Part shown: one piece after another, positions 43,154-48,642 of the stretch
Layout: every line of letters begins with the position of its first letter
Numbering within the stretch: position 1 is the first letter of the stretch
Origin: an uncultured Clostridia bacterium
Lineage (GTDB): Bacteria; Bacillota; Clostridia; TANB77; CAG-508
Length of the DNA stretch: 64,000 nucleotides
Direction of reading: 5' to 3'
NCBI GenBank assembly: GCA_947385375.1
Contig: CANDKR010000005.1
Span: forward strand, 41,907-105,906
Translations under genes and position numbers: made by a program
Notes under the pieces: generated by a model
What the model was told of the DNA's origin: nothing
The model's database searches: none
What the model saw: only the letters and a program-made list of their open reading frames with translations

Positions 43154-43795
43154 ATGGAAAAAGAAGAGATAAGAGATAACAAAGAATTAAGAAGAATAAT
43201 AGCATTAAAACTTGGAAAAATGCCTTATGATGAACTTGGAGCAGAGGACTTTGAGAAGATTTATGAAATAGCTTTAAATGCACGTTTAATTAATGGTAGG
43301 GAGTCTGGAATAAGTTTAGATGCTATTAGTTTATTTCCAAATTTAAGAAGATTAAAATTGTCAAATTATAGAATAACTAAAGAAGCCATTAGCAAAGTGG
43401 CTTCTTTAGCAGGTTTAATAGACCTCGAGATTTTTGGTGCAGAGTTTGAAGAAGGAGTAACCTTTGAAGGATTAGAACACACATTGAAAAGCTTGAGGTT
43501 TTATAACTGTTTGCAGGTTGATTTTAAATATCCTAGATTAGAGGAAGTATGGCTTAATCAAACAGATATTGATTTTAGTAAGATAGATTTACAAACAGCA
43601 CGAAGTCTTGTTATTAGAAATGGAAATGTGCGTAATATATGTGATTTAACGGATTTTCCAAACTTAGAAAGAGTAGATTTAGATGGCTCAATATTAACAA
43701 AAGGTAATGAGAAAGTAGATGATATAAAGGTAAGCAGTAAAACTAAGTATACACATAAAGAAGAAGTAGAATTAATAAATGGAGAGAGAGTATAG
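43154..43795 (+). CDS. leucine-rich-repeat-like protein (hypothetical)
   Basis: about 213 aa from ATG 43154; LxxLxLxN-type repeats (LFPNLRRLKLSNYRIT, FPNLERVDLDGS). Confidence 0.45.
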   Translation: MEKEEIRDNKELRRIIALKLGKMPYDELGAEDFEKIYEIALNARLINGRESGISLDAISLFPNLRRLKLSNYRITKEAISKVASLAGLIDLEIFGAEFEEGVTFEGLEHTLKSLRFYNCLQVDFKYPRLEEVWLNQTDIDFSKIDLQTARSLVIRNGNVRNICDLTDFPNLERVDLDGSILTKGNEKVDDIKVSSKTKYTHKEEVELINGERV

Positions 43796-43812
43796 TATAA
43801 AAGGGAGTAAAT

Positions 43813-46800: not shown

Positions 46801-48642
46801 CCAGGAACAGTTGCTGCTTATAGGACAATTGATGATTATCCTGAAAGAGAAGAGGACGAACAGTTTTTGCTATTAGATAAATATGCAGAATGTTTAGAGA
46901 GAATGACAAAATACGAATCTGGTAATACAAGTGTATATCAAGGAACTCCAGACCAAATTGCTGACGCTTTGGAAAAAGATAGAGAATATGTTGAAACTAG
47001 AAATCATACTTTTAATAAACATAGTAATATGAGAAGTAATTTAGCAACTTTAGGTAAATATGGAGAAAGAGTACCATATATTCCACATCAAGATGGAGTA
47101 CTTAAAAATATTGGTAGAGTAGCTTTAAATGCTGGTATCTTTACTAGAAATTTAGTCGCTCCAATATATAGAGGAGTGGGTAGATTTGTTGCTGTACCAA
47201 TACACAGATTAATAGTAAGAGATAGAGACGCATCTCCATTTAGGAATAATTGGTATCATAGAATGGTAGCAAGAAGAGATTATTTTACAGAGCAAAATAA
47301 TTCTACAACTCCTAACCATCCAATTAGAAATGGTATAAAAGCAAGAGCAGAAGCTATTTTTAAGGCAAAAGAAGGAAACAAAGCAGTATTAAATGCAGGA
47401 GCTTTTGAAATTCAGTCAAACATAGTTAGACAAGAAAGAGAAAGAAATTTAATTCATAGTTTGACTAATCAAAGTACTGAATATGCTACACAAATTGCTA
47501 CACTACAAAGTCAAATTTCTGCTCACCCAACTGCACCAAATATTGATGATGCAAGAAGAGCATTACAAGAAAAAATTAATAAAAAAGCTACAATTGATAA
47601 TAGAATTAGCAATTTGAGCAATAATAGAACAGGAATGTCACAAACAGATGCTATTAGTGATGCACAGCATGATATAGCAGTTAAAGAAGAAGTAACAATG
47701 AAAACAACTGTTATTAAAGGCTTTGCTAAAGGATTAGCTGTTAAATATGTAGGACCAAAGATCCATGATTGGCTTGCAAAACGTGGAACAAAAACAATAA
47801 CAGAGCAAACAACTATAATGGAGCCAGTTGAAAAACAAAGATGGGTTGAACCTACATATAAAGAAGAACCAGTACCAATATATGAAGAAGTGCTAGATAC
47901 TAATAAAAATATGTCTCAGATGATGGAAGCAAATAGCGGTAAATCTGTAACAGGTTTTTACTCAGTATATGGTGGAGAAAGAGGTGGTGCTTCTTACACA
48001 CTAACAGGTAATGAAAAGATTACTGCTGTATTTGAAGCACAAGGAAAAGGTGGTACAGGTTTTTCAGATACAGTTGGATTACAAGCGCCAGTTTTAGTTG
48101 ATAAAACTTTTGATAGTAGTTTGCTAACAGAAAGTGGTTTATTAAATCAAAATCTTACAATTAATGAATTATTAGAGGTAGTTAAAGGAGAAGGCGTTGA
48201 CGCAAGTGCTATTGCAAATATGTATGTATCAGTTGGAGATAGATATTGGGTTAAACTTTCTGAGCTTACTACTGACTGGACTTCTGAATTACAAGCAGGG
48301 GTAGCTTCTGATTTAATTACTAAAGTTCAAGTAGGAACTAGACTTGAGAGAGTACTTGATGTTGCAGGTCATTATGAAAAATATACTGACTATATACCAA
48401 AAGTAACAAGTATATCTCATACAGTTACAGATGATACTTTGGCAAAAATATCAGATACTGTATTAAGAGCAGGTGCTTATGCAGATGGTGTAATTGATGT
48501 TGGAGAAAACTTGAGATTTTCAAGTACAGAGGTTAGAAATAATAAGGCTATGCCTAGAAATTATGGATTTAATAGAGATGCAGATATACCTACAAGTAGA
48601 AAGGAATTTCGCAGTCAAATTGAGAGAGAAAGAGGCATATAA
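43813..48642 (+). CDS. giant multidomain protein (1609 aa) with two transglutaminase-like domains (first lacks the catalytic Cys, second has an intact Cys-His-Asp) and LRR-like repeats
   Basis: domain 1 around GLARNF...IGIPCRYV...HAWNEV...D; domain 2 GKCVCSGYADILRNALLMVGINAEN...GAHAWNRVELDDGT...WYHTDLTW; no signal peptide. Confidence 0.7.
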   Translation: MEEIFDRKLTFEDIQKINEKKPKYISVRSTKYLERRILRQLDTSIKIRIIGEDENKSAVEKEVESRTLQTKQEDDLYSKEELEQILTIYEEYEEGIHEEWSDLNKALYIYSRLVAEYDVSLANQVAENDISKKSTLKSIYTATPNSKGLARNFRELMDRIGIPCRYVENIERTHAWNEVRIDGTYYPVDVAMDSKISHQKGPGNILVHNFGKNPEFYEYPEHQLKTKPQEIKLLDRDSVQKALNVVVDQIASDHTKRKELVRQNITIPVQSKELKGVFKGDTVSLKTLEELSTVKISLTDNETEELISELKTIGTYYPEILNNVEIENKTAKPVNMQEVVDGIYEAKSVGQDIVIDPVNLTIASSFEEDFSIDLSKIPQVAEDVTKRVDDDLSGQSVTFRNTNTTKPMKVPAFKTKPSDSLSGIAFEGFDVEGLDLRDTKVSKISFDGSTNLDKVIPAVDVSYDIDITAMNASELTSALSNFRIHILTVKDVDLHDRPILQELSANPELIEININRANLNNLDGLENFDGRLYSLNLMVNELTVNDIARVQNFRNTNPLLESYLSYNAPFIREVRTLTPISDETYNFIAEYNTQRAENFSIYNKVDAIDYLLWGKTNMPYYIKDAKIIREDLKLIHNPMMVENDTELENFDFTQDYVKDGTLLLTPAQLEHLIAIGKTVPQTVRLRLESTVDLSASQANDLAVRANAIGINVREVQIIDPTKHSNRNQMAPYTLSQYTYIRDTLDLLIDGIDMTDSDIDKFATVYQRLMDSIAYDSDAIKQGSSAESKYYAEKRDTCRNLLQGLEEGKCVCSGYADILRNALLMVGINAENVSGFTNRDSAGNLTGAHAWNRVELDDGTGTKRWYHTDLTWCAGKSPAKMERVTLRGDSCTDFTDQHITNALGLPTVSSMDFDRNLLRTAFTKARANSFNIKNRQSQIDIPTDPQLQIEILDQDRILAEYTRRRNDMCAKYYGDKEYRREYMERSRRFRAHEIELNPGTVAAYRTIDDYPEREEDEQFLLLDKYAECLERMTKYESGNTSVYQGTPDQIADALEKDREYVETRNHTFNKHSNMRSNLATLGKYGERVPYIPHQDGVLKNIGRVALNAGIFTRNLVAPIYRGVGRFVAVPIHRLIVRDRDASPFRNNWYHRMVARRDYFTEQNNSTTPNHPIRNGIKARAEAIFKAKEGNKAVLNAGAFEIQSNIVRQERERNLIHSLTNQSTEYATQIATLQSQISAHPTAPNIDDARRALQEKINKKATIDNRISNLSNNRTGMSQTDAISDAQHDIAVKEEVTMKTTVIKGFAKGLAVKYVGPKIHDWLAKRGTKTITEQTTIMEPVEKQRWVEPTYKEEPVPIYEEVLDTNKNMSQMMEANSGKSVTGFYSVYGGERGGASYTLTGNEKITAVFEAQGKGGTGFSDTVGLQAPVLVDKTFDSSLLTESGLLNQNLTINELLEVVKGEGVDASAIANMYVSVGDRYWVKLSELTTDWTSELQAGVASDLITKVQVGTRLERVLDVAGHYEKYTDYIPKVTSISHTVTDDTLAKISDTVLRAGAYADGVIDVGENLRFSSTEVRNNKAMPRNYGFNRDADIPTSRKEFRSQIERERGI

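Follow-up and report, generated by a model that had tools for sequence, protein, structure and literature searches.

What does a soluble protein of 1609 residues do that carries two transglutaminase-like domains, one degenerate and one intact, and that is encoded next to a small leucine-rich repeat (LRR) protein in an uncultured gut bacterium? The locus lies in a 64-kb stretch of contig CANDKR010000005.1, which was analysed as a whole and is called the window here; its own locus is designated W, and L001, L003, L006 etc. are the loci of relatives with which it was compared. The window is a low-GC (~30%) chromosomal segment containing, among others, gyrA, dnaX, the signal recognition particle RNA, ypeB, a Mur ligase gene, ddl, a release factor gene and pcrA. 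This content of housekeeping genes and ypeB points to a spore-forming Clostridium as the source, and the nearest public loci come from mouse-gut and other gut metagenome-assembled genomes labelled 'uncultured Clostridia bacterium', 'Clostridium sp.' or 'Lachnospiraceae'. An earlier inspection of the letters by a model, referred to here as the sequence-only reading, had placed the large protein, called the giant in the following, and the 213-residue protein just upstream at the positions that we also find (Table 1). The ratio of nonsynonymous to synonymous substitution rates (dN/dS) along the giant gene ranges from 0.04 to 0.38, and the giant is therefore a functional coding sequence. As outlined below, it is most likely a targeted protein-modifying enzyme.

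The two transglutaminase-like domains

The giant matches the Pfam family Transglut_core (PF01841) with 63.7 bits over two stretches, the cut-off being 23. The tandem of a degenerate and an intact transglutaminase-like (TGase-like) domain that had been proposed is thereby borne out. In domain 2 the complete Cys-His-Asp arrangement expected from the earlier inspection is present, with Cys811 in the motif GKCVCSGYA, His848 in HAWNRV and Asp868 in HTDLTW, and all three residues are invariant in all homologues aligned (7 and 11 sequences).

Domain 1 does not contain this triad. The sequence-only reading had correctly noticed the loss of the catalytic Cys, and had placed an Ala at its position, which was off by four residues. 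According to two alignments the position is occupied by Ser146 (NSKGLARNF): this residue aligns with the catalytic Cys of Streptococcus pyogenes TglA (PDB 9crn) and, when domain 1 is compared with domain 2 (E 5e-5), with Cys811. Ala150 corresponds to the conserved Ala of the GYA motif. The His/Asp portion of the core, also said to be retained in domain 1, is kept in part. Asp189 is invariant, whereas His174 is present in the giant and replaced by Tyr, Ser, Arg or Asn in homologues. Because of the Ser at the Cys position and the variable His174, domain 1 is judged from the alignments to be degenerate family-wide and is a predicted pseudoenzyme.

An exchangeable central cassette

A 1.5-kb cassette in the centre of the giant gene is swapped between otherwise identical strains, which is a new finding. 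W and L003 differ at 482 of 1483 bases of the cassette but at only one of the 1316 gene bases 5' of it, and their flanks are about 100% identical. Among 30 population variants two central allele classes with 62% amino acid identity were found, together with near-identical N- and C-terminal parts. The giant of the window is itself a recombinant.

The synonymous divergence (dS) between the allele classes amounts to ~1 in the cassette vs ~0.13-0.17 in the C-terminal module described below, and dN/dS to ~0.3 vs 0.04-0.09, which makes the C-terminal module the most constrained part of the giant. The values for the cassette thus indicate an ancient or introgressed divergence under purifying selection and not decay. 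Positive selection on the cassette was considered and rejected in view of the dN/dS of ~0.3; the old divergence (dS ~1) was brought in by recombination.

The C-terminal module and its family

The C-terminal part of the giant (C-module) is a rare module without a Pfam domain or a relative in the PDB, which is likewise a new finding. In an AlphaFold2 (AF2) model built from 42 sequences (predicted local distance difference test score, pLDDT, 82.7) it comprises a helical subdomain, four or five helices that are 40-53 residues long, a pair of long beta hairpins with a small alpha/beta head on them, and a return helix that leads into a charged tail. A profile search of the PDB gave nothing below E 0.1 and no structural match was obtained; a fold search against the viral structures of BFVD did not give a match either. 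In other proteins, most of them 900-1150 residues long and some longer, the module is joined to unrelated N-terminal regions. The whole family amounts to 195 clusters at E <=1e-3 among 1.84 billion representatives, and in a Pfam scan of 30 diverse members Transglut_core was detected in nine and nothing else in any of them. Full-length homologues of the giant, with 42-92% identity, are few: a set of 5.8 billion proteins yielded 9 clusters at the 90% identity level, and an exhaustive search yielded about ten at the 50% level.

Simpler members of the family, which we call archetypal, have neither TGase-like nor LRR domains and occupy a fixed topA-trmFO-rpsL site in many genomes; this site and the tail paralogue that goes with it are a further new finding. 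The order at this site is topA, a large soluble protein without Pfam match, trmFO, at most loci another such protein, and the family member, followed by an open reading frame (ORF) for ~68 residues, at some loci further ORFs, and rpsL, rpsG, fusA and tuf. The ~68-residue protein found after each archetypal member is paralogous to the tail in which the family's own proteins end, with the motif D-phi-x-ENxRxT...PRNYxF. These stand-alone tail-motif proteins, as far as their sequences tell, fit a shared docking or targeting peptide. Transmembrane (TM) segments and signal peptides are absent from all large proteins of the archetypal site. In a clade of gut Clostridia, represented by L018, L023, L026, L027, L005 and L021, the topA-trmFO-rpsL interval holds two to four large soluble proteins without Pfam match (557-1686 residues), and at L018 a 619-residue protein and the family member share an N-terminal segment with 55% identity.

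The LRR-like region and the small LRR protein

In an AF2 model of residues 1-960 of the giant, for which 11 input sequences were available (pLDDT 77.5), strands recur every 21-26 residues (aa 395, 421, 443, 463, 484, 511 and 534), a spacing within the 20-29 residues of LRR units. The best Foldseek matches of this model are internalins (InlF, E 6e-4, probability 1.0; InlA), and further matches are TglA (E 1.3e-3), PeiP and a Roco LRR. Structural prediction thus recovered TGase-like enzymes as well as LRR proteins. An LxxLxLxxN-type sequence is present at residues 500-545, and none of the Pfam LRR models matches the giant even at E <=1. We assign an LRR-like solenoid, seen in the predicted structure only, to the giant with medium confidence; it would lie between the two TGase-like domains, immediately N-terminal to the intact one. 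LRR-like repeats had been postulated for both proteins; for the giant the AF2 model is in agreement with this and Pfam is not, and for the small protein the match to LRR_4 (25.7 bits, E 1.3e-5) stays under the cut-off of 27 and is accompanied by a weak match to LRR_At5g56370.

The gene for the small LRR protein is the sole conserved neighbour of the giant gene. It lies directly upstream in W, L003, L006, L008 and L001, as expected for the partner suggested by the sequence-only reading; a gap of 17 bp separates the two genes in the window, and they overlap in L001. The family of the small protein, with 15 clusters, is as narrow as the giant subfamily. The further proposal of a gene fission or a paralogous adaptor had to be abandoned. 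In a BLASTP comparison the small protein has no detectable sequence similarity to the giant (best E 4.3), and paralogy was rejected on this ground. Moreover, the small protein is 100% identical between W and L003 and does not co-vary with the central cassette, which argues against a role as cassette-specific immunity protein or adaptor.

Good ribosome-binding sites precede both ORFs, that of the giant being AAAGGGAG 5' of the ATG. Counterparts of the sigma-A-type promoter-like site, TTGTAA/TTGCAA-17-TATAAT, precede the orthologous small gene in L006 and L001. The leader motif TATTATGTAA occurs as a single copy in the window, where ~0.9 copies are expected anywhere by chance. With L006 (9311..9320) and L001 (9325..9334) it is found at the same place of the leader in three lineages including the window; in L007 (9162..9171) it has an equivalent position but upstream of a sortase gene. 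The motif occurs elsewhere too in L007 and L008, and because of these further copies the evidence for it is weak. On the 3' side of the giant gene a gap of 68 bp (48643..48710) is followed by the release factor gene.

Export signals and searches for mobile, toxin and defence systems

Neither the giant nor the small LRR protein contains a signal peptide or a TM segment. The N-terminus of the giant is charged, and no 19-residue window of the giant reaches a Kyte-Doolittle value of 1.6, the maximum being 1.31, in accordance with the earlier statement that it has no signal peptide. An LPXTG-like motif is absent from the giant as well, so that it has none of the features of a sortase-anchored protein. 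A link to the sortase in L007, whose gene lies upstream with the same leader motif, was rejected because a terminator-like hairpin lies at the end of the sortase gene and the giant lacks a sorting signal.

The sequence-only reading had further regarded the giant as typical of toxin effectors or of large virion proteins encoded by phages or integrative and conjugative elements. The searches speak against this. A PHROG scan gave no match for the giant or the small LRR protein, and in tblastn searches against 50,697 phage and 72,556 plasmid records the matches are confined to the generic TGase core (aa ~716-874). From these results and the fold search against BFVD, an origin from a phage, an integrative and conjugative element or a plasmid was rejected. 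With PADLOC (PADLOC-DB 2.0) the giant gave only a spurious AbiEi match at E 0.009 and the small LRR protein none, and a known defence system was dismissed on this ground. A polymorphic toxin would be expected to vary at its C-terminus. In the giant this is the most conserved part, and the gene 3' of it is that of the release factor and not an immunity-like one. A VirD4-like coupling protein gene, as would be expected for a substrate of a type IV secretion system (T4SS), is found only in W, L003 and L006, where it is frameshifted, and is absent at the other loci.

The homologues do not show the proposed association with secretion systems or phage modules. The flanking genes of the orthologues differ by lineage and are mostly housekeeping genes (Table 1). 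Unrelated housekeeping surroundings of the homologues, or the lack of a TGase-like fold, had been named beforehand as observations that would lessen the interest of the protein; the former largely apply to the orthologous loci, and the TGase-like domains themselves are confirmed by Pfam.

A proposed targeted protein-modifying enzyme and alternatives

We propose, with a probability of roughly 35%, that the giant and the small LRR protein form a lineage-restricted, Sec-independent protein-modifying enzyme complex in envelope or spore-surface assembly, with an exchanged specificity cassette. This proposal builds directly on the observed domain architecture, triad conservation, absence of export signals, modularity, cassette exchange and purifying selection. 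What we infer beyond these observations concerns the chemistry, the target, the role of the partner and the location. The LRR-like solenoid would pick a protein substrate, on which the intact TGase-like domain (Cys811-His848-Asp868) could perform a cysteine-dependent acyl-transfer reaction, i.e. cleavage of a peptide or isopeptide bond, deamidation or cross-linking. The N-terminal TGase-like domain, having lost its nucleophile, would serve as a binding or regulatory pseudoenzyme and the small co-transcribed LRR protein as a stoichiometric partner. The C-terminal stalk-and-head module of 670 residues and its tail motif may place the enzyme in a larger assembly, and with low confidence this could be a layer of the envelope or spore surface that these spore-forming Clostridia assemble independently of Sec export. 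Homologous recombination would swap the recognition-plus-catalysis cassette and in this way change the substrate specificity between strains. Members of PF01841 comprise both enzymes and inactive scaffolds (PMC10318531), and TGase-fold proteases that cleave one specific protein are known, e.g. LapG (PMC3032545).

The assignment to the envelope or spore surface was made because LRR and TGase-like domains of Firmicutes are typically extracytoplasmic and the carriers are spore formers, and because the shared tail motif resembles a targeting peptide and the allelic dimorphism suits an exposed protein. Sporulation genes were found in family carriers, namely for YpeB in the window, Coat_F in L001 and Spo0A in L018. 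Several points weigh against the proposal. The promoter-like element at the locus is solely of the vegetative sigma-A type, and a simple-pattern search for promoter motifs of sporulation sigma factors gave none, only sigma-A-like sites. There is no specific linkage of the giant locus to coat or exosporium genes. The LRR assignment comes from a medium-confidence model of only 11 sequences, and the role of the C-module in assembly or targeting is argued only from conservation and modularity, with no structural relative. Finally, the dimorphism of the cassette is equally compatible with an intracellular conflict system.

Such a system is doubtful in our view. It would be a conflict or anti-phage sensor-effector in which the LRRs sense a phage or plasmid protein, the TGase-like protease cleaves a cellular or invader target, and the C-module oligomerises or damages the membrane to abort infection. 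Two soluble proteins without export signal and a dimorphic recognition-plus-catalysis region, as is common in immune specificity modules, would be in keeping with this, and in the window the pair adjoins a short SbcC/Rad50-like ATPase gene with weak LmuB/GajA/AriA-type PADLOC matches, an SbcD-like nuclease gene and a split VirD4-like gene. Peptidases of the BTLCP type and LRRs are also among the effector and sensor modules of bacterial NLR-related defence proteins (bioRxiv 10.1101/2022.07.19.500537). However, neither of the two proteins is matched by a PADLOC model, searches for an NTPase or STAND module in them were negative, the SbcCD-like and VirD4-like neighbours are missing from the more distant orthologous loci, dN/dS stays below 0.4 everywhere, and the fixed housekeeping site of the archetypal members in many genomes is unlike a patchy defence island.

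It is conceivable, if unlikely, that the C-module and its tail motif, which also exists in the stand-alone ~68-residue proteins, constitute an undescribed delivery or assembly platform of low-GC gut Clostridia that carries interchangeable N-terminal payloads into a supramolecular structure or a non-Sec export route. The payload of the giant would be a pseudo-TGase/LRR/TGase enzyme with a recombining specificity cassette. If true, the module would stand for a modular targeting system of a new class and for a new fold.

The archetypal members also bear on the idea, which we consider improbable, of a cytoplasmic structural or scaffolding protein of the clade, either cytoskeleton-like or associated with the chromosome or cell cycle, in which the TGase-like and LRR parts would be accessory decorations of one sublineage. 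These members lack TGase-like and LRR domains, and they stand together with other large soluble proteins without Pfam match in a syntenic region delimited by topA, trmFO and the rpsL operon. A C-module of very long helices and hairpins and the strong purifying selection would suit a scaffold too. Against it, the triad of domain 2 is invariant in all full-length homologues, which argues for a retained enzymatic role, and an exchanged cassette in the recognition region would be unusual for a housekeeping scaffold.

There remains an exported effector or toxin acting on host or competitor proteins that would leave the cell by a non-Sec route, T4SS-like with VirD4-type recognition of the charged tail, or by lysis or holin-type release. 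By analogy, the arrangement with a variable enzymatic part at the N-terminus and a conserved part at the C-terminus calls to mind T4SS substrates whose signals are C-terminal, among which are effectors of the XVIPCD and BID types. The combination of an LRR with a catalytic-Cys enzyme is likewise reminiscent of the logic of IpaH-type effectors, E3 ligases in which an LRR is placed beside a catalytic-Cys domain. Further points in favour are a tail with many Arg/Lys and Glu residues, the allelic dimorphism of the central region, a VirD4-like gene (CD1115 family) 3.6 kb upstream of the giant, and a second T4SS-like remnant (11673..15388) that encodes a TrwB-like ATPase and a VirB2-like pilin. Nevertheless, such an effector is distinctly improbable, as the VirD4-like gene is frameshifted at Walker A and unlinked to the giant in L001, L007, L008 and at every archetypal locus, VirB4, relaxase or channel genes are missing near the giant, as is the immunity gene that a toxin aimed at bacteria would need, plasmid or phage homologues do not extend beyond the TGase core, and the highly constrained 670-residue module far outsizes known secretion signals.

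At present, the giant represents a well-delimited uncharacterised family with a predicted active site, and there is no evidence of a toxin or mobile-element protein. Should it be a targeted protein-modifying enzyme as proposed, it would be a specificity-reprogrammable one of uncultured gut Clostridia with a target in the host, in phages or in the own cell. If the proposal is right, the C-module would define a structural family absent from both Pfam and the PDB, which a whole clade conserves at a fixed chromosomal site, and it would be a candidate for a principle of assembly or localisation that is new in Firmicutes. The C-module family, its fixed locus including the tail paralogue, and the exchange of the cassette are worth the attention of specialists.

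Genomic neighbourhood

Table 1. Features of the giant locus and its surroundings, with positions in the window
Feature	Position	Strand	Properties and basis
Small LRR-like protein gene	43154..43795	+	213 aa, 24.5 kDa, soluble; ATG at 43154
Giant ORF	43813..48642	+	1609 aa, 182 kDa, pI 5.3, soluble; ATG start
Sigma-A-type promoter-like site TTGTAA-17-TATAAT	43085..43113	+	5' of small LRR gene; consensus scan match only
Leader motif TATTATGTAA (10 nt)	43123..43132	+	Between promoter-like site and start codon, just 3' of -10 box
TGase-like domain 1, degenerate	44107..44379	+	aa 99-189; Pfam, alignments to 9crn and domain 2, family alignment
Domain 1 key residues	Ser146 44248-44250; His174 44332-44334; Asp189 44377-44379	+	Ser146 at Cys position
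Predicted LRR-like alpha/beta solenoid of giant	44680..45447	+	aa ~290-545; AF2 strand periodicity, Foldseek
Exchangeable central cassette	45129..46611	+	aa 439-933: LRR end, helical/alpha-beta linker, TGase domain 2
TGase-like domain 2, intact	46075..46416	+	aa 755-868; Pfam 36.3 bits alone, E 7.6e-9
Domain 2 triad	Cys811 46243-46245; His848 46354-46356; Asp868 46414-46416	+	
Conserved C-terminal module	46624..48639	+	aa ~938-1609, ~670 residues
C-terminal tail motif D-phi-x-E-N-x-R-x-T ... P-R-N-Y-x-F ... P-T-S-R/K	48457..48639	+	phmmer, MAFFT
VirD4-like coupling protein gene (NCBIfam conju_CD1115 family), split	38166..40233	+	191-aa TM-containing ORF and 506-aa ATPase ORF
SbcD-like phosphoesterase (356 aa) and short SbcC/Rad50-like ABC ATPase (542 aa)	40371..43069	+	3' of VirD4-like gene
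Flanks of giant locus, window			dnaJ-like ... release factor
Flanks, L008			hsp33, HD hydrolase ... ksgA
Flanks, L007			ABC exporters, sortase ... peptidoglycan-binding protein
Flanks, L001			SpaA/LRR surface protein, camelysin-like ... Sel1, alpha/beta hydrolase, Mur ligase, ddl

The VirD4-like, SbcD-like and short SbcC-like genes upstream of the giant are restricted to W and its close relatives L003 and L006 and are absent in L001, L007 and L008; a functional link of the giant to them was rejected on account of this distribution. In the VirD4-like gene the reading frame changes by one base immediately ahead of the Walker A motif (...NVNVLVV / GGSGAGKS), near position 38725. L003 has this interruption too, as does L006, which is more diverged; conservation of the ATPase part is 99%. 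The SbcCD-like pair has weak PADLOC matches of the LmuB, GajA, AriA and DndD types. These genes are preceded by three small ORFs without Pfam match (37192..38124, plus the TM ORF) and a perfect TTGACA-17-TATAAT promoter (37097..37125). This stretch may be the remnant of a defence or mobile-element island of the close relatives.

A second island (11673..19279), which looks like the remnant of an integrated element, adjoins tRNA-Arg(CCT) (15446..15521). On the minus strand it encodes a TrwB_AAD_bind-like ATPase (13233..14951), a weakly matching TrbC/VirB2-like pilin (12923..13243) and small ORFs without Pfam match, and it continues with genes for a KilA-N protein, a GtrII glucosyltransferase and a Fic/DOC protein. 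Furthermore, a 1.3-kb stretch on the plus strand (22164..23420) with a GC content of 0.47 vs ~0.30 may have been acquired horizontally. The encoded protein of 418 residues has a signal peptide and a Gly/Asn-rich linker and matches no Pfam family; the full-length ORF on the opposite strand is probably an artefact of composition.

In L001, the region upstream of the orthologous pair (114..9073) encodes a 1908-residue SpaA/SdrD/BspA-LRR surface protein and three camelysin/TasA-like small proteins, and in L007 a membrane-anchored sortase is encoded upstream of the giant. Surface-assembly genes thus recur by the giant locus in two lineages, with no clear operon linkage.

Comparison with known systems

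Both TGase-like domains of the giant match the PF01841 superfamily, which includes TglA (PDB 9crn), Pseudomonas aeruginosa TgpA, the mycoplasma MAG6410 lipoprotein family and the pseudomurein endoisopeptidase PeiP, and the triad of domain 2 is canonical. Among TGase-like enzymes, S. pyogenes TglA is the best match in the PDB in both sequence and fold. The known members are, however, much smaller than the giant and, unlike it, are secreted, lipid-anchored or membrane-bound.

A plausible model for domain 2 is provided by the LapG-type BTLCP enzymes (PMC3032545), in which a TGase-fold Cys-His-Asp protease is highly specific for one protein. LapG itself is a small, periplasmic and calcium-dependent protein of Proteobacteria, whereas the giant matches it in sequence only at the level of the superfamily, and both a periplasm and a LapD-like partner are lacking. 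Domain 1 resembles Rad4/XPC and erythrocyte band 4.2 (PMC10318531) in that it keeps the signature of the fold and has lost the Cys nucleophile and the conserved His; those proteins are eukaryotic and act in unrelated contexts, and the binding function of domain 1 is putative. The predicted LRR solenoid beside a catalytic-Cys domain recalls the internalins, with InlF and InlA as top Foldseek matches, and IpaH. In contrast to these, the giant has no Pfam LRR match, signal peptide, LPXTG or GW anchoring, NEL domain or type III secretion system. With polymorphic toxin systems (PMC3482391) the giant shares the organisation as a large modular protein with a recombining variable segment, but this segment is central and the C-terminus conserved, and neither a trafficking domain nor a downstream immunity gene is present. 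None of the known PF01841 members pairs a dead and a live copy of the domain with an LRR solenoid and the C-terminal module of the giant. Its architecture makes the giant a new variant within the TGase-like superfamily, in fusion with a C-module that lies outside Pfam and the PDB.

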